Assembly: GCA_041629655.1 (NCBI GenBank)
Contig: JBFKMV010000001.1
Span: forward strand, 8,075 to 72,074
Source: Candidatus Polarisedimenticolaceae bacterium
GTDB taxonomy: Bacteria; Acidobacteriota; Polarisedimenticolia; Polarisedimenticolales; Polarisedimenticolaceae
Direction of reading: 5' to 3'
Length of the DNA stretch: 64,000 bases
Under the pieces are notes generated by a model, which saw only the letters and a program-made list of their open reading frames with translations, did not search any database and was not told the origin of the DNA. Below, one piece after another: positions 4,245 through 46,341 of the stretch (position 1 is its first letter; each line of letters starts with the position of its first letter). The position numbers and the translations under genes were made by a program.

Positions 4245-4562
4245 TCAGCCGCCGAGCTTCTTGACGTACTCGGCGACCGACTTGATCTGCTCGTGGGTCA
4301 GCTTGCCGTCGAACTTGGGCATCTTGCCCTTGCCCTCGAGGCTGACCTTCACGATGTCCTCTACCGAGGTCGCTTTTTGCCACTCGGCGTCGTTGAGGTT
4401 GGCCGAGCCCTTCGCCATCGCCTTGGCCACGCCGTCCTTGCCGTGGCACATCGCGCACTTCTTGTCGTAGAGCGCCTGGCCCTCGTCCTCGGCGAGCGCC
4501 GCCGGCGCGGCCGCGAGCGAGGCCAACAGCACCAACACCGCGATCCAGAACATCCGCTTCAT
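4245..4562 (-). CDS. Monohaem class I c-type cytochrome, secreted
   Basis: Signal peptide MKRMFWIAVLVLLASLAAAPAALA and a single CAMCH haem motif with a distal Met region (GKGKMPKF). GAGGAGG lies 5-7 nt before the ATG at 4562. Confidence 0.85.
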   Translation of the reverse strand: MKRMFWIAVLVLLASLAAAPAALAEDEGQALYDKKCAMCHGKDGVAKAMAKGSANLNDAEWQKATSVEDIVKVSLEGKGKMPKFDGKLTHEQIKSVAEYVKKLGG

Positions 4563-5341: not shown

Positions 5342-5389
5342 CCGGAACGGGGCGGGGGCCGGCTGCGCGGCCCGGAAGGAGGCGTCATC

Positions 5390-5854
5390 ATGCGAAGCCT
5401 GGAATTCGTGGTCGGATGCGTCGGAGTCGCCCTGGTCGCGCTGGGGCTGGCGATGGCCAGCGTGCCGTCCGGTTCGACGGCCGTGCTCGCCCAGACCACG
5501 ATCGCGGCCGCCGGGCCCGTCGGGTCGGCGCCCGTGCCCGACAAGGCCAAGCGGACGTCCAATCCGGTGCCCGCCACGGCGGATTCGGTCGCGGAAGGCA
5601 AGACGATCTTCAGCAGCCAGTGCACGATGTGCCACGGCGTGCTCGGCAGCGGCAAGGGCGACCTCGTCGAGCGGCTCGAGCTGCAGATGCCCGACTTCAC
5701 CGATCCCGCGTACCAGCGGGCGCGGACCGACGGCGAGCTGTTCTGGGTCATCAGGAACGGGCACGAGGAGATGCCCTCGCAGGCGAAGCGCTTCGACGAT
5801 CGGACCTGGTGGAACGTCGTCAACTACATTCGCACCCTTGAGCGGAAGGACTGA
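5390..5854 (+). CDS. Monohaem c-type cytochrome, secreted or membrane-anchored
   Basis: N-terminal hydrophobic segment and a single CTMCH motif. GELFWVIRNGHEEMP supplies the Met-ligand region typical of class I cytochromes c. Confidence 0.8.
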   Translation: MRSLEFVVGCVGVALVALGLAMASVPSGSTAVLAQTTIAAAGPVGSAPVPDKAKRTSNPVPATADSVAEGKTIFSSQCTMCHGVLGSGKGDLVERLELQMPDFTDPAYQRARTDGELFWVIRNGHEEMPSQAKRFDDRTWWNVVNYIRTLERKD

Positions 5855-16161: not shown

Positions 16162-18186
16162 TCAGAAGGTGAGCCCCGCGCGGAGCGACACGATCTGACC
16201 CTTGTAGTCCAGGCCGTCGTTGCTGAACAGCACGGCGCCCAGCCCGTCCAGCCGGCGGCCCCCGTCGTCGTACTCGAAATCGCGGTAGTCGGCCCCGAAG
16301 TACAGGCCGTTCGGAAGGAGGTAGGTCAGACCCAGCTCCCAGTCGTCGTAGTCCTGCGCGATCACCTCGTCGTTGACCAGGCCGGAGGCGTCGCCGAACA
16401 GCAGGTTGTGGCCTTCGGACTCGGTCATCGTGTAGCGGGCGTGGATCTTCCACGCCTCGCTCCAGCGGTAGTTGAGGTAGGCCGAGAGCTGCGTGTTGTC
16501 GTTCTGGAACACGGAGTCGCCGTCGTCCGCCAGATTGAAGCCGGCGAGGTCGAACCGCACGCCGACGCGCGTGTCGATCTCCTGCTCGGCGTAACGCAGC
16601 ATGTAATCGACGTTCTCGTTGGCCTTGTGCCAGAACGCCACCGAGTGCGTGGTGCCCTCGGCGGTGCCGTCGTAGAACGAGCCGGGGCTGCGGAGGTCCG
16701 GGGCGTTGTTGTCGTGGTCGAAGTCGAGGTATCCCAGGTCGATCCGCATCTCGGGCTGCGGCAGGAATGCGGCGCGGATCCGGGTATGCGAGGTCTCCCG
16801 CGGGGCCACGGCGTTGAACGGCTGCGTGATGTCGCCGTTCTCGATGTCGGCGTTGAGGCGAAACCACTTCACCGGCCGCAGCGACAGGCCGAAGATCACG
16901 GTCTCGTCGTCGTCGGAGTCGAGCTCGGTGTCGCGCAACAATCCGCCGAAGCCGTTGCGGTCGAGCGTGCGGTCGATGGTGCGATAGCCGGCCCGCAGCG
17001 CCACCGTCCGCGCCGGGCGCGCTTCGACCAACGCGGTCAGCGTGCTCAGCTCGTAGTCGAGGCGGGTGTCCGAGGACGGCACCCCGTCGCCGTCGATGTC
17101 GTCCTCCAGGCCGTCGCCGTCGAGGTCGCGCGTAAGCACGCCGTCCAGCTCGCGGTCCAGGTTGCGGAACTGCAGGTGCAGGTCGACCGCCTCGACGAGC
17201 TTGACCGTCAGATCGACGTCGACCAGCATCGTGTCGCCCTCGGCCTCGGAGCGGCTGGATCCGCCGACAACCGAGAACGGGTCGCCGTTGAAATCGAGAC
17301 CCGTCGCGTCCAGCCCGACGCGGCTGTCGAGCTGCTCTTCGCCGAGCAGCGTACCGATCAGCGAGACCGCGAGGCGCACCCGCTTGCCGAGACCGGCGCC
17401 GACCCGGATCGTGGTCAGATCGACGTCCCCGTCGTCGCGCTGGAGCCAGTCGTAGGAGTCGAGTCGCGACAGCGCTCCGGCCTCGAGCCCGGCGTTGTCC
17501 TCGGTGATGTTCCGGAAACGGTTGTCGTAGCTGCGCCGGCTCTGGCGGAACAACAGGTTGACCGGCCCGACCTCGACCGTGGCGGCGACGCTGAACAGCT
17601 CGTGCTCGGCGTCGAGCGGCGTGTCCAGACGGAACAGGTTGCGCTCGACGTCCTTCATGAACAGGGAGTTGCCGGTGCGTTCCCCGCGCTGGTAGTTGAA
17701 CGAGAGTTGGACGCGCTCCGACGGAAAGGCCCGGAACGTCAGATCGGTCATCCGGCGCCGGGCGTCCCACGCCGCACCGTCCTCGTTGTTGACCAATCCG
17801 AACAGGTCGTACAGGTAGGCCTGCTGCCAGTGCGTCGCGCGTAGATCGTAGACGTTGCGCCGGCCGAGCTGGAACGAGCCGCGCCGGTAGGGATCTCCCA
17901 GGCCACTGAGCTCGAGCCGCGCGCGGTCGAGCAGCTTCGAGTCCAGGTCGCTCCAGTCGAGCTCCAGGTTGGCCAGCCGCACGCCCGAATCGAGACCGTC
18001 GAAATCCTCGTCGTACTTCCGCCGGCTCCCGTCGCGGTCCACGTCGCGATAGACCAGCTCGACCGAGCCGCTGGGGCTCCGCTTGTCCTCGTCCTCCGCG
18101 CGGACCCCGGAGTCGGCTCCGAGCAGCAGCCCGGCGAGGGCGAGACCGGTCAGGGCGAAACCGAGGCCAGGGTGTCTCGTCGTCAT
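16162..18186 (-). CDS. Large outer-membrane beta-barrel, MtrB/PioB-type partner of the decahaem cytochrome
   Basis: Signal peptide, 674 aa, alternating beta-strand pattern rich in D/N/Y/R, and a C-terminal ...LRAGLTF. It starts 3 nt after the stop of the decahaem gene. Confidence 0.7.
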   Translation of the reverse strand: MTTRHPGLGFALTGLALAGLLLGADSGVRAEDEDKRSPSGSVELVYRDVDRDGSRRKYDEDFDGLDSGVRLANLELDWSDLDSKLLDRARLELSGLGDPYRRGSFQLGRRNVYDLRATHWQQAYLYDLFGLVNNEDGAAWDARRRMTDLTFRAFPSERVQLSFNYQRGERTGNSLFMKDVERNLFRLDTPLDAEHELFSVAATVEVGPVNLLFRQSRRSYDNRFRNITEDNAGLEAGALSRLDSYDWLQRDDGDVDLTTIRVGAGLGKRVRLAVSLIGTLLGEEQLDSRVGLDATGLDFNGDPFSVVGGSSRSEAEGDTMLVDVDLTVKLVEAVDLHLQFRNLDRELDGVLTRDLDGDGLEDDIDGDGVPSSDTRLDYELSTLTALVEARPARTVALRAGYRTIDRTLDRNGFGGLLRDTELDSDDDETVIFGLSLRPVKWFRLNADIENGDITQPFNAVAPRETSHTRIRAAFLPQPEMRIDLGYLDFDHDNNAPDLRSPGSFYDGTAEGTTHSVAFWHKANENVDYMLRYAEQEIDTRVGVRFDLAGFNLADDGDSVFQNDNTQLSAYLNYRWSEAWKIHARYTMTESEGHNLLFGDASGLVNDEVIAQDYDDWELGLTYLLPNGLYFGADYRDFEYDDGGRRLDGLGAVLFSNDGLDYKGQIVSLRAGLTF

Positions 18187-18189
18187 CGG

Positions 18190-19032
18190 CTACTCCTCCA
18201 GGAAGAACGGGCTGGTGTTCGACCCGTGGATCGCGGTGTGACACGCGGTGCACTTCTCGTTCAAGAAGCGCGGCACGCTGTGCCAGCCCGGCGTGACGCT
18301 GGCGCTGTGGCACTGGTAGCACAGGTTGACCTGCGGCTCGTGCTTGAGCAGGTGGCGGTTCGGCGAGCCGTGGACCTCGTGGCACGCGGCGCAGCCGTCC
18401 ACGAACACGACGTCGTGCGAGTAGACGTAGGGCACTGCCTTGTCGAAGTGGCAGTCCCCACAGGTGTCCCGGAACAGCGACCGGTCGGTGCGCAGGGACT
18501 TGGTGGCGTGCGGGTTGTGACATTTCGCGCACTCGGCGATGGGGTGGCTACGGGGCAGGTCGAACTGGGCCGCGATGGCCTGGTGGCACCGCGAGCACAG
18601 CTCGCTGCCCTCGGCGCGCAGCAGCTTGTCGTGGCTGCCGTGCGGATCGTGGCAGTCGTTGCAGCCGACGTCGCCGAGCCTGTGGAGGCTCTGCATCGAG
18701 GAGAAATGAGCCTCCTGCTTGCGATGGCAGCTCAGGCAGGTCTCGGAGGCCTGCCGCGCCGACAACTCGCCGAAGCGGACGATCCTGGCGGGGTCACCGC
18801 CCTCCTCGACGTGTGCGGTGCCGGGTCCGTGGCAGCTCTCGCACCCTCGCTCCTCGTCCCAATACGGACTGCGGGCGTGGGGGGTACGCGCGAACGCGGC
18901 GGCAATCTCGTCGTGGCAGGCCGCGCACGTCTCGCTGCCGACGTATTCTTCCTCGGCACCGACCGGCGCCGCTAGGGGAACCGCGCAGCACAAGGCGACC
19001 AGCGGTAAAAGCCGTCGGAACATCCGGTGCAT
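18190..19032 (-). CDS. Periplasmic decahaem c-type cytochrome, MtrA/DmsE/PioA family
   Basis: Signal peptide MHRMFRRLLPLVALCCAVPLAAPVGA and exactly 10 CXXCH motifs in about 255 mature residues. A GGAGGAGG RBS precedes the ATG at 19032. An alternative ATG lies at 19023. Confidence 0.85.
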   Translation of the reverse strand: MHRMFRRLLPLVALCCAVPLAAPVGAEEEYVGSETCAACHDEIAAAFARTPHARSPYWDEERGCESCHGPGTAHVEEGGDPARIVRFGELSARQASETCLSCHRKQEAHFSSMQSLHRLGDVGCNDCHDPHGSHDKLLRAEGSELCSRCHQAIAAQFDLPRSHPIAECAKCHNPHATKSLRTDRSLFRDTCGDCHFDKAVPYVYSHDVVFVDGCAACHEVHGSPNRHLLKHEPQVNLCYQCHSASVTPGWHSVPRFLNEKCTACHTAIHGSNTSPFFLEE

Positions 19033-19087
19033 GACCTCCTCCGTGGCGACATCGGGCAGGACCGACCGCACCCGAACCGTAGCGCAA

Positions 19088-19096
19088 TTTATACCA
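19088..19096 (-). promoter_or_regulatory. Extended -10 sigma-70 promoter candidate for the decahaem/barrel operon
   Basis: The minus strand reads TGGTATAAA (TGn + TATAAA), about 55 nt upstream of the ATG. The same TGGTATAWW 9-mer recurs upstream of secA and EF-G. Confidence 0.3.
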
Positions 19097-19233
19097 GCGA
19101 CCCGTGGGAAACGGGGTCGCTCCATCGACAACGCGGACCCAATCGCTCCGAAACACGCCTGGCGCCGGGAATGCTACCGTATCCGACCCCGGCGGTGGAA
19201 GCCTCGCCGCGCGTCCGGGGGAGGAAGGGTGCG

Positions 19234-21168: not shown

Positions 21169-22626
21169 TCAGGCGCGGGGCTCGGGCGGCTTCAGCGGCA
21201 GCTCGAGGGCGACGACGGCGCCGCCGGTGTCGGCCGGGACCAGCCCGATCCAGCCGCCGTGGGCCTCGACGACCTGCCGGGCGATGGCCAGTCCCAGGCC
21301 GGTCCCGTAGTTGCGGGTGGTGAAGAACGGCTCGAACACGCGCTCCCGGATCTCGCCGGGGACGCCGGGCCCGTTATCGGCGACGGCCACGCGGCAGCGT
21401 CCGTCCTCGTTGCTCAACGAGACCTCGATGCGCCCCTTGCCGTCCATCGCCTGCGCCGCGTTAAGCAGCAGGTTCTGGAACACGTCCCGCAACTGCTCGG
21501 CGTCGGCCAGCACCTGCAGATCGTCGCCCGTGATCTCGACCTCCACGCCCCGCAGGCCGGGGTCGCGGCGCAGCAGCCGGGCGGTGTCCCGGATCAGCGC
21601 CGCGAGCTGCACCGGCGCCGGCTCCGGGCGCCGCGGCCGGGCGTAGCGCAGCAGGTCCTGGACCTTTTCGTTCAGTCCGTCGATCCGGCTCAGGATGCTC
21701 CCGATCACCTCCCGGTCGACGCTGTCTCCGGGCAGCCGCCCGCGGATGATCTGAAGCGCACCGGCGATGCCGGCCAGCGGGTTCTTGACCTCGTGGGCCA
21801 CCACCGCGGCGAGCTGACCCAGCTGGTGCAGCGCCTCGCGGTTGCGCAGCTCCTCCTCGATCTGCTTGCGCGCCGTGATGTCGCTGCGGATGGCCAGGTA
21901 CTGGTACGGCTTGCCGTCGGCGTCCAGGAACGGCACGATCGTCGTGTCGACCCAGTAGATCGTCCCGTCCTTGGCCCGGTTGCGGATCTCGCCGCGCCAG
22001 ACCCGGCCCTTGCCGATCGTTCCCCACAGGTCGCGGAAGAACGCCTTGGGGTGGTGCCCCGAGTTGACGATGCGATGGTCCTGCCCCAGCAGCTCCTCGC
22101 GCGGGTACTTGCTGATCTCGCAGAACTTGTCGTTGACGTAGTGGATGATGCCCTTGCGGTCGGTGATCGCCACGATCGCGGCCTGGTCGATGGCCTGCTT
22201 GATGTCCCGCAGGTCCTTCAGGGATTTCCGCAGCTCGTCCTCGACCTGGCGCTGCTCGGTCACGTCCTCGCCGGAGCTCAGGGTGCCGCTGATCCGGCCC
22301 TCGCCGTCGCGGAGCAGGGCGTTGTGCCAGGCGATCACGCGCTCGTCCCCGGACCGTGTCACGACGGGATTCTCGAACCTCTCGGCCAGCTGCTCCCGTC
22401 CCTCGATCAGCCCCCGATGCACCTCGCGAACCTGCTCCCGCAGCCGCTCCGGGACGAACTCCTCGATCCAGTCGCGGCCGATCAGCTCCTGCGGGGGGTA
22501 GCCCAGGACCTGGCCGCCCTTGCGGTTGATCAGCGAGATCCGGCCCCGGGCGTCCAGCGCCAGGATGATGACCTCGGCGATGTCCAGGAAGTCCTGCCCA
22601 TCGCGCAGGGGGGGAGAATCGGACAT
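21169..22626 (-). CDS. Cytoplasmic PAS-domain sensor histidine kinase (NtrB/AtoS-like)
   Basis: Two PAS domains, an H-box [12 protein letters not shown], an N-box ([10 protein letters not shown]) and G-boxes ([14 protein letters not shown]). No TM segment. Start at MSDSPPL chosen inside the ORF. Confidence 0.8.
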
Positions 22627-22718
22627 CCTCGTCGTGACTCCGCGGGTTTCGGGGGCTCGGGACCGTTCGATTCGCCATCCTAGCGGCGGCCCCGGGACCC
22701 TGCAAACCGCTCCGGGCG

Positions 22719-22734
22719 TGGAACGGTTCTTGCT
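22719..22734 (+). promoter_or_regulatory. Sigma-54 promoter candidate for the NtrC-family regulator gene
   Basis: TGGAACGGTTCTTGCT has correct spacing. It lies in the divergent kinase/regulator intergenic region, about 85 nt upstream of the ATG at 22817. Confidence 0.5.
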
Positions 22735-22816
22735 CGAACGGTCGGGAGAAACCCGCCGGACGGCCACGGGGCTGCTTGGCCCGCGCCCGGGCGGCCGGTA
22801 CCATGGGGTCGTGAAG

Positions 22817-24184
22817 ATGCGTCCGACCATCCTCGTCGTGGACGATGAGCAGCTGATCCGCTGGTCGCTCCGCGAGCGTCTGGACCAGGCCGGTTACCAC
22901 GTGCTGGAGGCGGAGACCGGGGCCCAGACCGCCGAGCGGCTGGAGGAGTGGATCGACCTGGTCCTGCTGGATTACAAGCTGCCCGACACCGACGGGCTGA
23001 AGCTGCTCAAGCAGATCAAGGACCGCGACCCGGACACGCTGGTGATCCTGATGACGGCCTACTCCTCGGTCGAGAACGCCGTCGAGGCGATCAAGCTCGG
23101 GGCCTACCACTACGTCAACAAGCCGTTCAATCTGGACGAGATGATGTTGATGGTCGAGAAGGCGCTGGAGACCACCCGGCTGCGCCGGGAGGTCAAGTCC
23201 CTGCGCGCCAGCCAGTCCGCGCCCTACGGCTTCGACAGCATCATCGGCGAATCCCGGGCGATGCGCTCGATCAAGACGCTGCTGCAGAAGATCGCCGGCA
23301 GCCCGGCCTCCACGGTGCTGCTGAACGGCGAGAGCGGCACCGGCAAGGACCTGGCGGCCAAGGTCCTGCACTACAACTCGGACCGCGCCGCCGGGCCGTT
23401 CATGAACATCACCTGCACCGCCCTGACGGAGACGCTGCTGGAGAGCGAGCTTTTCGGCCACGAGCGCGGGGCGTTCACCGACGCCAAGCAGCAGAAGAAG
23501 GGCCTGTTGGAGCTGGCGGACCGCGGCACGGTCTACCTGGACGAGATCGGCGAGATGCCGGCGATGCTCCAGGCCAAGCTGCTGCGGTTCCTCGAGGAGC
23601 GCGCGTTCAAGCGCGTCGGCGGGACCACCGACCTCTCGGTGGACGTGCGGGTCGTCGCCGCGACCAACCGCAACCTGGAGGAGGAGGTGCGCCAGGGCCG
23701 CTTCCGCGAGGACCTGTATTACAGGCTGAGCGTGCTGCCGGTCACGATGCCCGCGCTACGGGAGCGGACGGGCGACGTTCCGCTGATCGTCAACCACTAC
23801 GTGGACCAGTTCAACAAGGAGTTCCGCCGCAACGTGCAGGGCCTGTCGGACGGAGCCCTGACCCTGCTGGGCGCCCACTCGTGGCCGGGCAACGTCCGCG
23901 AGCTGCGCAACGCCGTCGAGCGGGCGATGCTGCTGGCCGAGGCCGACGTGCTGAGCGCCGAGGACTTCACGATGCTGGTCCCCGGGGGGCGCCTGGCCGA
24001 GGGCTTCCGGCTGCCTCCCGACGGGATCGACTTCGAGCAGCTCGAGCGCGAGCTGGTGGTCCAGGCGCTCGAGCGGTCCGGGGGCAACCAGACCCGGGCG
24101 GCCGCGCTGCTGGGCATGAATCGGGACCAGATCCGGTACCGGATCGAGAAGTTCTCGATCGGCAAGGCCAAGTCGGCCGACTAG
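22817..24184 (+). CDS. Sigma-54-dependent response regulator (NtrC family bacterial enhancer-binding protein)
   Basis: Receiver domain (ILVVDDE...[11 protein letters not shown]), an AAA+ domain with GESGTGKD, the GAFTDA sigma-54 contact loop and [10 protein letters not shown], plus a C-terminal Fis-type HTH. Confidence 0.9.
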
Positions 24185-24345: not shown

Positions 24346-24361
24346 TGGCATTGGGGTTGCT
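24346..24361 (+). promoter_or_regulatory. Sigma-54 promoter candidate for the Rrf2 regulator gene
   Basis: TGGCATTGGGGTTGCT has correct spacing and lies about 45 nt upstream of the ATG at 24405. An AAAGGAGG RBS follows. Confidence 0.55.
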
Positions 24362-24404: not shown

Positions 24405-24968
24405 ATGGCTCTCAAACTGACCCAGGCCGCCGACTACGCGATCCGCGCGATGCTGTACGTGGCCTCGTTCCCCGAAGGGCGCTCGGTGCTGCGCAGCGAG
24501 GTCGCCCGGGCGGAGCGGATCCCCGTCAGCTTCACCGCGAAGATCCTGCGCAGCCTGGTCCGGGCCGGGCTCCTGCGATCGACGCGCGGGGTTCACGGCG
24601 GCTTCACGCTGGCGCGGTCCGGGGCCGAGATCAACCTGCTGCAGGTCGTGGAGGCGATCGAGGGGCCGATCTCGCTCACCAACTGCGTCCCGGAGCCGGA
24701 CAATTGCGTCAATTCGAGCAACTGTCCCGCGAGCCAGATCTGGTGGCGCGTCCAGTCCGAGATGGTGCGCATCCTGGAAGAGGCGACGCTGGAGGCGCTG
24801 ATCTCCACCCCGCGCCGCAACGGGAGGGTGGAGTTCGGCAAGCAGCGCTCCGCCGTGGAGGAGCCGTCCGAGGGCGATGCGCCGGCGAGCACCGCCGCGC
24901 GCGACGATCAGCAGGCTGCCGACGACCGGCCGTGGCCGGTCAACCGCCGCGCGCTCTGCGTGGTCTGA
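24405..24968 (+). CDS. Rrf2-family transcriptional regulator with a three-Cys cluster (IscR/NsrR-like)
   Basis: MALKLTQAADYAIRAMLYVA...GVHGGFTLAR winged helix, and a Cys triad CVPEPDNCVNSSNC. Confidence 0.85.
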   Translation: MALKLTQAADYAIRAMLYVASFPEGRSVLRSEVARAERIPVSFTAKILRSLVRAGLLRSTRGVHGGFTLARSGAEINLLQVVEAIEGPISLTNCVPEPDNCVNSSNCPASQIWWRVQSEMVRILEEATLEALISTPRRNGRVEFGKQRSAVEEPSEGDAPASTAARDDQQAADDRPWPVNRRALCVV

Positions 24969-32651: not shown

Positions 32652-33655
32652 TCGGGCCCGAGGGTCACGCGTTGTTCCGCCGGCTGCTCGGGCAGCGCGG
32701 ACCGTTCGTGCTGACGACGCACATCAACCCCGACGGGGACGCGATCGGCTCGATGATCGGGCTGGCGTGGTTCCTGCGCTCGCGGGGCGCCGCCGTGCGG
32801 ATGATCGCGCAGGATGCGGCTCCGCCCAACCTGAAGTTCCTCGAGAACGCCGACCTGGCGTCGGAGGCCTACGAGCCCGCGCAGCACGACGCGCCGCTGG
32901 CCGCGGCCGAGCGGGTGATCCTGCTCGACAACTCCGCGCCCGACCGGCTGGGGCGCATGGAGCAGCCGCTGCTGGGCGTGGCGTCCAAGACGCTCTGCAT
33001 CGACCACCATCCCACCCGCGGCACGCCGTGGGCCGAGAACATCCTCGACCGCTCGGCCTGCGCCACCGCGGCGATGGTCCACGAGCTGCTGGCCGAGGTG
33101 GGCTGGCAACCGGACCTGCCGGCGGCTCGGGCGCTGTACGTCGGGATCGCGACCGACACGGGCTTCTTCCGCTTCAACTCCACCAACGCGCAGGGCCATG
33201 CCATCGCGGCGCAGCTGCTGCAGCTGGGGGTCGAGCCGGCCCGCTGCTACCAGGAGATCTACGAGCGCAACTCGGTCGCCTACACGCGCCTGCTGGGGCG
33301 GGCGCTGGCCGACCTGCGCACGACGGACGACGGCTCGGTCGTGGCGGTGCGGATCACGCACGCGATGATCGACTCGTGCGGAGCACGCGGGGTCGACACC
33401 TCCGAGATGACGACGCCGTTGCTCGCGCTGGACGGCGTGTGGATCGCCTTGTTGTTTCGCGAGCTGCCGGGTCGGCGGGTCAAGGTCTCGCTGCGTTCCA
33501 AGGGCGACACGGACGTCCACCAGCTGGCGCTCGAGTTCGGCGGCGGCGGCCATCGCAACGCGTCCGGAATCGTGACCGACGGCAAGCTGGACGACGTGAT
33601 GCAGGAGGTCATGCGACGCGCCGCCGCGCTGGTCGCGGCCCGCCGCGGGGAGTGA
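32648..33655 (+). CDS. nrnA: DHH/DHHA1 phosphoesterase (NrnA-type oligoribonuclease/pAp phosphatase)
   Basis: THINPDGDAIGS, IDHHP and GGGHRNASG motifs. The GTG start overlaps the preceding stop (GTGA). Confidence 0.75.
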   Translation: MIGPEGHALFRRLLGQRGPFVLTTHINPDGDAIGSMIGLAWFLRSRGAAVRMIAQDAAPPNLKFLENADLASEAYEPAQHDAPLAAAERVILLDNSAPDRLGRMEQPLLGVASKTLCIDHHPTRGTPWAENILDRSACATAAMVHELLAEVGWQPDLPAARALYVGIATDTGFFRFNSTNAQGHAIAAQLLQLGVEPARCYQEIYERNSVAYTRLLGRALADLRTTDDGSVVAVRITHAMIDSCGARGVDTSEMTTPLLALDGVWIALLFRELPGRRVKVSLRSKGDTDVHQLALEFGGGGHRNASGIVTDGKLDDVMQEVMRRAAALVAARRGE

Positions 33656-39680: not shown

Positions 39681-40871
39681 ATGACCAAGGAACTTTTGAG
39701 CCCCAGGAACATCGAGTACATCGAGCGGGCGCGCGAGGTCGCCGAGACCGCGATGCGCCCCGTCGCGGCCAAGTACGACCAGGAGCAGGCCTACCCGTGG
39801 GAGGTCCAGCAGGCGATCAAGGACGCCGGCCTGAGCGGCGTGTGGATCCCCGAGGAGTACGGCGGCGAGGGCGGCGGCGTGCTCAATCTGTGCCTGGTGA
39901 TCGAGCAGTTCTCCCGCGCCTGCGGGGGGATGGGAGTCGCCTACGCGGTCAACGCCCTCGGCTCGTTCCCGATCCTGGTCGGCGGCACCGAGGAGCAGCG
40001 GCGGCGCTGGCTGCCCCAGATCGCCTCGGGCGACACGCTGATCGCGTTCGGGTTGTCCGAGAAAGACGCCGGCTCTGACGCCGGATCGATGCAGACCACG
40101 GCCGAGCTCGACGGCGAGCACTACGTGATCAACGGGCTCAAGAAGTGGAACACCGGCGGCGCCGTCGCCGGGCTGAACACGATCTTCGCGGTGACCCAGC
40201 CCGGACGGGGTGCCCGCGGCATCTCCGGGATCGTCGTCGAGGCCGGCACGCCGGGCTACAAGGTCGGCAAGCACGAGGACAAGATGGGGATCCGCTGCGT
40301 GCCGGTGGTCGAGCTGCACCTCGACAACTGCCGGGTGCCGCGCGACAACCTGCTCGGCGGATCGGAGGGCCTCGGGTTCAAACACGCCATGATGACCCTC
40401 GACCGGGCCCGGCCGGGCGTGGCGGCCCAGGCGCTCGGGCTGGCCCAGGGCGCGTTCGAGCTGGCGGTCGAGTACACGGGCGCCCGACAGCAGTTCGGGC
40501 AGTCGATCAGCTCGTTCCAGGGCATCCAGTGGATGCTGGCCGACATGGCGACCGAGATCGAGGCGGCGCGGCACCTGGTCTACACCGCGGCGCGGGCCGC
40601 GGACGCCGGAGTCAAGAACCTGACCAAGCTGTCGGCGATGTGCAAGCTCAAGGCGACCGACGTCGCCATGAAGGTCACCACCGACGCGGTCCAGCTGTTC
40701 GGCGGCTACGGCTACGTCAAGGACTACCCGATCGAGAAGTACATGCGCGACGCCAAGATCACGCAGATCTACGAGGGCACCAACCAGATCCAGCGGCTGG
40801 TGATCGCGCGCAACATCCTGCGCGAGGCCGCCGGGGCGGCGGCGCGAAAGGAGAAGGTCTCGGCCGAGTAG
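39681..40871 (+). CDS. Acyl-CoA dehydrogenase (short/medium-chain type)
   Basis: GLSEKDAGSDAGSM, GLKKWNTGG and YEGTNQIQRLVIAR motifs. Confidence 0.85.
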   Translation: MTKELLSPRNIEYIERAREVAETAMRPVAAKYDQEQAYPWEVQQAIKDAGLSGVWIPEEYGGEGGGVLNLCLVIEQFSRACGGMGVAYAVNALGSFPILVGGTEEQRRRWLPQIASGDTLIAFGLSEKDAGSDAGSMQTTAELDGEHYVINGLKKWNTGGAVAGLNTIFAVTQPGRGARGISGIVVEAGTPGYKVGKHEDKMGIRCVPVVELHLDNCRVPRDNLLGGSEGLGFKHAMMTLDRARPGVAAQALGLAQGAFELAVEYTGARQQFGQSISSFQGIQWMLADMATEIEAARHLVYTAARAADAGVKNLTKLSAMCKLKATDVAMKVTTDAVQLFGGYGYVKDYPIEKYMRDAKITQIYEGTNQIQRLVIARNILREAAGAAARKEKVSAE

Positions 40872-41010
40872 CCCGGCGGGCGCCAGAAAGGCATTCCCGA
40901 TGCCGCCCCACGTCAGCATGACGTCCACACGGGGACACTGTGTGGCGCCGGGAGGACGCGGGGAGCCCCGCGCCGGGCCGAATTTGATGGTTTTTGAAAG
41001 CTTCCTGCCC

Positions 41011-41026
41011 TGGCATCGGGCTTGCT
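41011..41026 (+). promoter_or_regulatory. Sigma-54 promoter candidate driving a short terminator-bounded transcript
   Basis: TGGCATCGGGCTTGCT has correct spacing and sits in a locally AT-richer intergenic stretch. Dyads ACGTCAgcaTGACGT (40910-40924) and CCACAC-N9-GTGTGG (40925-40945) lie 65-100 nt upstream, where an enhancer site would be expected. Confidence 0.55.
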
Positions 41027-41036
41027 TTTCTCCGAG

Positions 41037-41127
41037 GCGCGACATGACCTCCTCCTGGTCAGTGTCCAGCCCCCTCCAGGCCTGATGGTCTTGCCCCCCC
41101 GCTGGCCTGGAGGGGGCTGACTTTTTT
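41037..41127 (+). ncRNA. Candidate sigma-54-dependent small RNA (about 90 nt) with an anti-Shine-Dalgarno 5' tail
   Basis: The 5' end is predicted 12 nt after the -12 GC. A single-stranded GCGCGACAUGACCUCCUCCUGGUC is followed by a perfect 16-bp terminator hairpin with a C-rich loop and a U6 tail. No credible ORF is present. Confidence 0.45.
41067..41127 (+). terminator. Intrinsic terminator
   Basis: CAGCCCCCTCCAGGCC ... GGCCTGGAGGGGGCTG (16 perfect bp, 21-nt loop) followed by ACTTTTTT. Confidence 0.65.
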
Positions 41128-41198
41128 CAGGGCGTTTTTCAGCCCGCTCCCCGCTCCTTCCGGCCCCCTGTGTCTTGACAGCCCCGCGGACCGGGACC

Positions 41199-41876
41199 AT
41201 GGTCACGGGGGCTGAACCGATGCAGACGACCCCGGCGGACCTGAGCGATGCGATGCTGGACGCGGCCGTGGAGCTGTTGGGGCGCTCCGGCGGCAGCGGG
41301 ATGGTCCGGGTGCAGGGGGTCAGCATGCTGCCGATGCTGCGCCCCGGCCAGCGCCTGGCCGTCGAGTTCTCGCCGGCGCGGCTCGGTGCGGGCGACCTGC
41401 TGCTGTTCCGGCAGGGTGCCGAGCTGGTCGTGCACCGGCTGCTCGGCCGCGGCGGCGGCGCGCGCGGCCCGTCGTACTACCGCACGCGCGGCGACGGCGT
41501 GCCGCGGCTCGATCCCCCGGTGGATCCCGCCAACGTCGTCGGCCGCGTGACGGCCGTCGAGCAGCCGGCCGGCTGGCGCGACGTCCGCGGTCGGCCGGCG
41601 CGGCTCTACGGACGCTGCCTGGCCTGGCACGACCGGTTCTGGTCGCTGGTCCAGCACGGGGCCTCGCGGCTCGATCCGGCGCTGGAACGGATCCACTGGC
41701 GGCTGCGGCTGCGGCCGCGCGTCGCCGCGCTGGACCGCGGGCTGCTGTACGCCGCGCACCGGCTGCTGTTCGCGGCGTTCCACCGGCGGATTCCGGAACC
41801 GCCGGGCCTTGCGGCGCTCGCGGGACCCGACGCCGGCGAGCCCCGCACGGGGACCGGTCCCGCGGCCTCGCGCTGA
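41199..41876 (+). CDS. S26-family signal peptidase, SipW/archaeal (Ser-His) type, with a C-terminal extension
   Basis: GVSMLPML (nucleophile Ser), VVHRLLG (His in place of the bacterial Lys) and RTRGDG. The start is uncertain (41199 or 41220). Confidence 0.6.
   Translation: MVTGAEPMQTTPADLSDAMLDAAVELLGRSGGSGMVRVQGVSMLPMLRPGQRLAVEFSPARLGAGDLLLFRQGAELVVHRLLGRGGGARGPSYYRTRGDGVPRLDPPVDPANVVGRVTAVEQPAGWRDVRGRPARLYGRCLAWHDRFWSLVQHGASRLDPALERIHWRLRLRPRVAALDRGLLYAAHRLLFAAFHRRIPEPPGLAALAGPDAGEPRTGTGPAASR

Positions 41877-41919: not shown

Positions 41920-46341
<4,422 letters not shown>

Follow-up and report, generated by a model that had tools for sequence, protein, structure and literature searches.

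The DNA analysed here is a stretch of 64,000 nucleotides (64 kb; hereafter the window) from Candidatus Polarisedimenticolaceae bacterium (contig JBFKMV010000001.1, assembly GCA_041629655.1). At the locus under study, an acyl-CoA dehydrogenase gene (39681-40871) is followed by a short element on the plus strand, then by the gene of an S24/S26-like peptidase (P0001, 41199-41876, plus strand; Pfam PF00717, with a weak match to TIGR02228; other possible starts at 41220 and 41253), and by secA (41984-44782, plus strand; Pfam SecA domains), which is the conserved second downstream gene. The element is predicted to yield an RNA of ~91 nt (41037-41127, plus strand), whose start is placed at the usual spacing after the GC of the -12 box and whose end is placed at a U-run. 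An earlier note on this DNA had proposed a sigma-54-dependent small RNA at this position, pairing over 13 nt with the translation start of a decahaem cytochrome mRNA. Comparison with related sequences indicates that the element is a conserved, single-copy and previously undescribed RNA gene, specific to the class Polarisedimenticolia; the reading as a sigma-54 small RNA is largely supported, and the alternative offered at the same time, that of a leader of the genes downstream, is partly true.

Sigma-54 promoters have a GG at -24 and a GC at -12 with a fixed spacing (TGGCAC-N5-TTGCW). The one proposed for the RNA, at 41011-41026 on the plus strand, is borne out: TGGCAT-N5-TTGCT (TGGCATcgggcTTGCT) is an exact consensus match, one of three exact matches to TGGCAY-N5-TTGCW in the window, where seven are found when up to one mismatch is allowed, as compared with 1.5 expected. 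In all 35 homologues of the element, TGGCA[CTA]-N5-TTGC[AT] is matched exactly 16-21 nt 5' of ACAUGACC, a segment of the first hairpin of the RNA, and the spacing from the -24/-12 box to this hairpin is constant. By aligning 30 upstream regions, we also identified two conserved palindromes, both candidate sites for an enhancer-binding protein. The first, GCGCCAGAAAGGCAT (40880-40894, plus strand; consensus GYGCCA-N3-YGGCRC), forms a conserved column block ~150 bp 5' of the predicted start; the second, ACGTCAGCATGACGT (40910-40924, plus strand; consensus CGTCAG-N2-TGRCGT), lies ~120 bp 5' of the start, is the top-conserved upstream block and is a perfect palindrome in the window. Between these sites and the promoter stands an AT-rich tract, AATTTGATGGTTTTTGAAA (40981-40999, plus strand), which may act as a bend or IHF-type site; an A/T-rich stretch at about -40 to -60 occurs in nearly all homologues, in genomes of ~65-70% G+C. 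Activators of sigma-54 typically bind ~100-150 bp upstream of the promoter, often with a bend site in between, and, as judged from these putative sites, the palindromes, the AT-rich tract and the -24/-12 box together make up a classic enhancer-dependent arrangement. The gene rpoN is not within the window; that the organism uses sigma-54 is suggested by the NtrC/AtoC-type activator encoded in it (22520-24184). Within the window, the palindrome motif was not found elsewhere above chance and not before the other sigma-54 promoters, nor did it reveal any regulon link between this activator and the promoter of the RNA.

When the window sequence is folded, two adjacent hairpins begin ~12 nt after the -12 GC, and the 94-nt stretch that contains them reaches -53 kcal/mol (z = -6.4 versus shuffles). 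Hairpin 1 (41041-41066, plus strand) has the stem GACAUGACC / GGUCA-GUGUC and the loop UCCUCCU (41050-41056); both the minimum free energy structure and RNAalifold pair ACAUGACC (41042-41049) with GGUCA-GUGU (41057-41065), this pairing is invariant in 33 homologues, and all eight pairs are kept in 96-100% of alignment cells. The 13 nt presumed to pair with the cytochrome mRNA had been placed in an unpaired 5' segment, a view that has to be revised because CAUGACC is paired in the stem of hairpin 1, leaving UCCUCCU alone in the loop. This loop, together with its closing C-G pairs, displays CCUCCUCC, an anti-Shine-Dalgarno (anti-SD) sequence. Hairpin 2 (41067-41119, plus strand) would provide both the stem of a terminator and a second C-rich loop: a perfect, G+C-rich stem of 16 bp (41067-41082 with 41104-41119) encloses a 21-nt loop carrying UGCCCCCCC, with its C-run at 41094-41100. 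The sequence GCCCCCCC, which the earlier note had singled out as a further anti-SD element, is contained in this loop, and the run of 7-10 C is invariant among homologues, as expected for an anti-SD seed. Intrinsic terminators consist of a G+C-rich hairpin followed by a U-run; here the 16-bp stem is followed by T6 (41122-41127, plus strand), classed as terminator-like by terminator listing, so that hairpin and U6 are present as first described. Termination is thus predicted from sequence, the stem being covarying and the U-run conserved, with at least five T in 8 nt in 35/35 homologues and at least four consecutive T in 27/35. The hairpin-2 loop (41083-41093) of the window and of many relatives also has GGUCAUG or GGUCUUG, complementary to CAUGACC of hairpin 1 (41043-41049); as a conserved tertiary contact this pairing was rejected, because it is missing from a subgroup with GGAAACG in the loop.

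Homologues were identified by scanning genomes, one per species, with the pattern TGACCTCCTCCTGGTCA-N25-55-GCCCCCC. Matches were obtained in 28 species-level genomes, all of them Acidobacteriota and mostly labelled Polarisedimenticolaceae, including Ca. Polarisedimenticola svalbardensis, which was described in a study of Svalbard sediment (PMC8528874), and 'Acidobacteria bacterium Mor1', with one match per contig. In Mor1 (CP011806, locus L031) the element occupies 4344-4447, and on JACXWD010000003.1 (locus L011) it occupies 5345-5448. One metagenome-assembled genome (MAG), SMAG_U10130, has the element on two contigs (L021 and L030) in differing sequences, with the acyl-CoA dehydrogenase gene upstream, which may reflect a genuine duplication or the binning of two strains into one MAG. 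A second set of loci was retrieved by means of the peptidase protein, whose homologues are 41-58% identical to that of the window; it comprises the homologues with retrievable DNA, P0098 being left out. The element was present in 6/6 independent metagenome loci of this set for which the upstream DNA was in hand, and it is kept before the peptidase gene even where the gene upstream differs. A first genome scan with the peptidase protein and an exact-sequence look-up of the SecA protein both gave no match. The element thus belongs to a conserved family, found in 28 species-level genomes and 6 metagenome loci.

The alignment of 33 distinct sequences (A1; counts for the promoter, the U-run and the short open reading frame [ORF] discussed below refer to 35 homologues) reveals compensatory changes at 14/15 pairs of hairpin 2, with 97% of cells paired; pairing falls to ~50% when the partner is shifted by one column. 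The same pair of hairpins emerges de novo from RNAalifold. Across the alignment, neither hairpin 1 nor the C7-10 run changes, while the stem of hairpin 2 varies freely. The covariance model built from the 33 homologues (R1) scores 115 bits (E = 2e-30) on 41033-41136, detects no second copy of the RNA in the window, and also recognizes the element in L119/L120, which are outside its training set. None of the families of Rfam 15 reaches its gathering score on the element, and searches at E-values up to 10 return only generic hairpins (miRNA precursors) and weak matches to ar14 and sX13; literature searches found no description of the element.

We read these features as a sigma-54-dependent anti-SD RNA of ~90 nt that is also the leader of the peptidase mRNA, a reading to which we give a probability of roughly 0.55. 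As the conserved DNA signals suggest, an enhancer-dependent sigma-54 promoter would drive the RNA, which would end at the strong intrinsic terminator and display both CCUCCUCC on hairpin 1 and the C7-10 run in the terminator loop, the two being complementary to G-rich SD sequences. By analogy, activation of the enhancer-binding protein would lead to accumulation of the RNA, whose loops would pair with the ribosome-binding sites of mRNAs having long, strong SDs and thereby lower their translation. A fraction of the transcripts probably reads through the terminator into the mRNA of the S24-like peptidase, and the RNA would then be a small RNA and a leader at once. Several points weigh against this reading. 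The start, the end, the terminator efficiency and the abundance of the RNA are all predictions, and the target set is putative, its assessment being confined to the 64-kb window. The invariance of hairpin 1 is partly built in, as its motif served as the scan pattern; the window and the six protein-retrieved loci show the same invariance, which lessens this bias without abolishing it. The U-run is weak, with at most three consecutive T, in 8/35 homologues, which suggests leaky termination. Finally, the RNA was not found away from the peptidase and secA genes, and a purely cis-acting leader therefore fits the synteny equally well.

According to such a leader model, the element would be solely a cis-acting 5' leader or attenuator of the peptidase (perhaps secA) operon: the sigma-54 promoter would serve the peptidase gene, the hairpin and U-run would tune the transcription or translation passing through, and the terminated product would have no function of its own. 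We regard this as possible, though somewhat unlikely. The position of the element directly 5' of the peptidase gene is invariant, this gene being the next after the RNA in all loci but one and secA being found in all loci that extend far enough, and the peptidase homologues were found only in the same limited group of metagenomes and MAGs, which makes RNA and gene look like one module. Moreover, in many relatives only 1-25 nt separate the U-run from the start codon of the peptidase gene, too few to hold a promoter, and no SD is present; many relatives also have a TGnTAnAnT -10 box just 5' of secA and likewise 5' of the acyl-CoA dehydrogenase gene, whereas the peptidase gene has none. The peptidase mRNA must therefore usually start at or upstream of the sigma-54 promoter and cross the terminator, and read-through probably accounts for at least part of the expression of its gene. 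The window differs from many relatives in having a longer gap between the U-run and the peptidase gene; inspection of this gap points to TTGACA-17-CATGGT (41174-41202), possibly a weak promoter belonging to the gene itself.

On the other hand, attenuator and riboswitch leaders are made of mutually exclusive terminator and antiterminator structures, and no conserved alternative pairing was found in the alignment, for which RNAalifold yields a single structure. An antiterminator formed by CCUCCUCC and the 3' arm of hairpin 2 is possible in the window and fails, on inspection of the alignment, in species where this arm reads GGAGAGGG; a pseudoknot of the G-rich 5' tail with UGCCCC of loop 2 was likewise discarded, only 44% of cells being paired. 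A plain terminator would not need loops that stay invariant while the stem drifts, and this pattern, together with the lack of a conserved antiterminator or pseudoknot, argues for a function of the RNA itself. That this function would be exerted in trans is favoured for two reasons: at the downstream peptidase gene the anti-SD loops have no SD to mask in cis, and one locus (L026, JBBIHW010000121.1, 3126-3325) has lost the peptidase gene while keeping the enhancer sites, the promoter and the RNA, which there stand ~110 nt before secA. The suggestion that the element is a leader for a SipW-like peptidase and secA is partly right, and, because both the leader and the own-function readings have support, we favour the dual arrangement. 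As a side observation, the -10 boxes found 7-35 nt before secA (in L021, L020, L032, L016, L008, L036 and others) are of the extended type, with TGATAGAGT, GATATACT, TAGAGT or TACAGT, and similar ones precede the start codon of the acyl-CoA dehydrogenase gene; combined with the short leaders, they hint at a promoter consensus and at frequent short leaders in Polarisedimenticolia.

The earlier note had assigned the RNA a single target, the MtrA-like decahaem cytochrome, and this, too, has to be weighed as an explanation of its own, in which the RNA would be a dedicated antisense regulator acting through the full 13-nt duplex CAUGACCUCCUCC / GGAGGAGGUCAUG and would place the outer-membrane electron conduit under the enhancer-binding protein. 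The cytochrome gene (18190-19032, minus strand) encodes a DmsE/MtrA-like protein of 280 aa with ten CXXCH motifs and adjoins the gene of a 674-aa putative porin (the pair spanning 16162-19032). The perfect complementarity is present: the plus strand reads CATGACCTCCTCC at 41043-41055 and at 19030-19042, its only exact second copy in the window, and GGAGGAGGUCAUG (19030-19042, minus strand), covering the SD and start codon of the cytochrome gene, is the exact 13-nt complement and a candidate target. We compared targets by the length of exact complement, RNAduplex rankings being uninformative because the 30-nt G+C-rich seeds inflate energies and the gene finder missed genes. By this measure, the match is the longest complement to the RNA within the window and the sole one of at least 10 nt on a start site; the next-best seed complement (33603-33613) falls within a coding region and not on a start site, and was rejected as a target. 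A concern had been that the 13-mer might be a common start context; it is missing from ~118 other loci, the RNA gene itself apart, which speaks against this. The SD core GGAGGAGG occurs at one genuine gene start in the window, that of the cytochrome, the adjacent porin gene having GGAGGAG.

Structure, energetics and conservation nevertheless weaken the claim of a dedicated 13-nt control, which we consider not established and unlikely. The 13-bp duplex is worth -24.7 kcal/mol, but because CAUGACC is held in the conserved stem, opening hairpin 1 costs 10.1, and the net energy equals that of the 8-nt pairing with the loop alone (-14.8). Since stem opening cancels the extra pairing energy, the 13-mer adds no specificity beyond the strong GGAGGAGG SD. 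Conservation between the 13-mer and the mtrA-like start regions of relatives did not hold either: the exact 13-mer is kept in 0 of ~10 orthologues (51-69% identity). The closest of them has 12/13 (GGAGGAcGUCAUG) and another has GGAGGAGGcUCAUG, which may be counted in favour of the dedicated duplex, and a further two share 7 nt or more of the SD core (~4/10 in all); the others differ, several of them having quite different start regions. As for the invariance of CAUGACC among the RNAs, it is accounted for by hairpin 1 itself. The match was moreover noticed post hoc among many possible pairs, and, by a rough estimate, about one such gene per genome would be expected by chance. An A/T-rich TATAAAT box is seen ~55 nt before the AUG of the MtrA-like gene (19060-19110, minus strand), which is probably transcribed from its own promoter of the ordinary sigma-70 type. 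With GGAGGAGG as its SD, the cytochrome mRNA would be a reasonable and plausible member of the strong-SD target set, without special selection by the extra 5 nt. A bolder extension of the anti-SD RNA reading, in which the class-wide RNA selectively shuts down mRNAs of exceptionally long SD, including those of the MtrAB-like outer-membrane conduit, and read-through turns on the peptidase beside secA, strikes us as distinctly unlikely; if it were true, a single enhancer-binding-protein signal would, in uncultured sediment Acidobacteriota, couple protein export to extracellular electron transfer.

The RNA had been said to hold no credible ORF. A 13-codon ORF does exist, MTSSWSVSSPLQA* (MTSSWSVSxPLRA), from the ATG at 41044 to the TGA at 41085 (plus strand), its stop being the first codon of the hairpin-2 loop, and it is retained in 26/35 homologues. 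This raises the question of translation-coupled attenuation, in which a ribosome translating these codons would mask the 5' arm of hairpin 2, halt in the loop and block termination, thereby allowing expression of the peptidase. That the stop stands at the same loop position in these 26 homologues, as TGA, TAG or TAA, with GTG as the only start variant, fits this scheme, yet the ORF has no SD, a leader of ~7 nt and an AUG buried in the stem of hairpin 1. Furthermore, codons 1-7 show zero synonymous changes among 35 sequences, which reveals a constraint on the RNA and not on the peptide; the stop is lost in 7/35, in two others indels change the length of the ORF (7 codons in L010, 14 codons in L019), and derived loop codons show no enrichment in stops. 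We therefore hold the ORF to be probably incidental and attenuation of this kind to be very unlikely. In L002/L003 (3898-4600), where the loop stop is lost (CGA), the short ORF starting from hairpin 1 (GTG) runs in frame into the peptidase gene. On the opposite strand, a gene starting at GGAGGAGGTCATG (41055-41043) was rejected: the corresponding ORF is not conserved, varies over 1-133 codons among homologues with a broken frame, gives no Pfam match and overlaps the acyl-CoA dehydrogenase gene. Lastly, a protein-binding RNA, whether an autoregulatory site for SecA, which in E. coli represses its own translation, or a decoy of the 16S rRNA 3' end titrating a factor that recognizes the anti-SD, would suit the constant linkage to secA and the extreme sequence conservation of both arms of hairpin 1 beyond the needs of pairing, but it is highly improbable, given that any binding protein would be hypothetical, that secA is 0.7-0.9 kb further downstream and in many cases served by a separate promoter, and that a sigma-54 promoter would be odd for housekeeping autoregulation.

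The two other exact sigma-54 matches of the window are also located upstream of genes. One, TGGCACGGCCGTTGCT (4658-4643, minus strand), precedes a gene (4557-4245, minus strand) for a secreted monohaem c-type cytochrome of 105 aa (CAMCH), with an SD, GAGGAGGA, to which the RNA loop is complementary as well; the other (24346-24361, plus strand) precedes the gene of an Rrf2-family (IscR/NsrR-like) regulator (24405-24968, plus strand) with the SD AAGGAGGUC. The NtrC/AtoC-type activator mentioned above (plus strand), in which GAFTDA replaces GAFTGA, forms a divergent pair with a PAS histidine kinase (21169-22830, minus strand). This pair lies ~2-3.5 kb from the decahaem cytochrome and porin genes, with one 619-aa ORF of unassigned function between them.

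To our knowledge, almost nothing has been described of riboregulation in Acidobacteriota, and Polarisedimenticolia are known mainly from MAGs. The class hereby gains an RNA gene that is sharply defined and highly conserved, and whose promoter, structure and candidate seed can be read from the sequence. Its fixed place before the peptidase gene and secA suggests a connection, open to testing, of secretion with a stress or nutrient signal; a link with metal-respiration cytochromes, so far hypothetical, would matter for sediment biogeochemistry if it proved true.

Among known regulators that share its promoter type, Qrr1-5, GlmY, NrsZ and CrcZ are sigma-54-dependent RNAs by which an enhancer-binding protein turns an environmental signal into a riboregulator. 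They use other seeds or protein sequestration, and we know of none among them that is an anti-SD mimic or is fused to a downstream peptidase gene. The promoter is all that the RNA has in common with them, as there is no similarity in sequence or structure; the resemblance to Qrr that had been put forward thus applies to the promoter and not to the architecture, the RNA having no Rfam match to Qrr (RF00378) and two hairpins as against four stem-loops. As to the dual arrangement, rnTrpL of Sinorhizobium and SreA/SreB of Listeria are 5' leaders from which an intrinsic terminator releases a small RNA with possible action in trans, while the gene downstream is expressed from transcripts that pass the terminator. 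These leaders contain a ligand- or ribosome-sensing switch, whereas no alternative structure was found in the RNA described here.

The closest likeness in design is to RNAs with C-rich loops. In sX13 of Xanthomonas and RsaE/RoxS of Firmicutes, such loops pair with G-rich sequences at or near the ribosome-binding sites of many mRNAs; their structure, promoters and taxa differ from those of the present RNA, which scores 11.6 bits against sX13 (RF02232), for a gathering score of 50. Like the present element, 6C RNA (RF01066) is small, has hairpins with C-rich loops and comes from bacteria of high G+C content, but it belongs to Actinobacteria, whereas the hosts here are Acidobacteriota, and it has neither a CCUCCUCC loop nor a linkage to secA. 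It has two loops of at least six C as against one C-run loop here, and no match to it was found at E-values up to 10. Its loops bind several mRNAs directly (PMC6486639), and in Corynebacterium it is transcribed from a SigA/SigB promoter (PMC5014011). The present RNA is also short, with adjacent hairpins, a CCUCCUCC(C)-type loop and a variable stem, and in this it resembles the cuckoo or alpha-r14 RNAs, whose members include CcsR1-4 of Rhodobacter and NfeR1 of Sinorhizobium (Rfam RF02344 and relatives). In these, adjacent hairpins combine an ultraconserved anti-SD loop motif with variable stems, and pairing at the ribosome-binding site silences many mRNAs (PMC10746234, PMC4615179). They have been found only in alphaproteobacteria (PMC4615179), and the promoter of NfeR1 is of the sigma-70 type (PMC10746234), as opposed to the sigma-54 promoter of the RNA described here. 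The score of the latter against ar14 is 16.9 bits, for a gathering score of 58.8, and, in place of two to four hairpins each with CCUCCUCCC, it has CCUCCUCCU and UGCCCCCCC, that is, one loop in which CCUCCUCC is followed by U and not by C, and another that is a plain C7-10. The likeness is convergent and not homologous. The element is a new RNA family of the C-rich anti-SD-loop design, of which it apparently represents an independent third or fourth invention, joined in this case to sigma-54.

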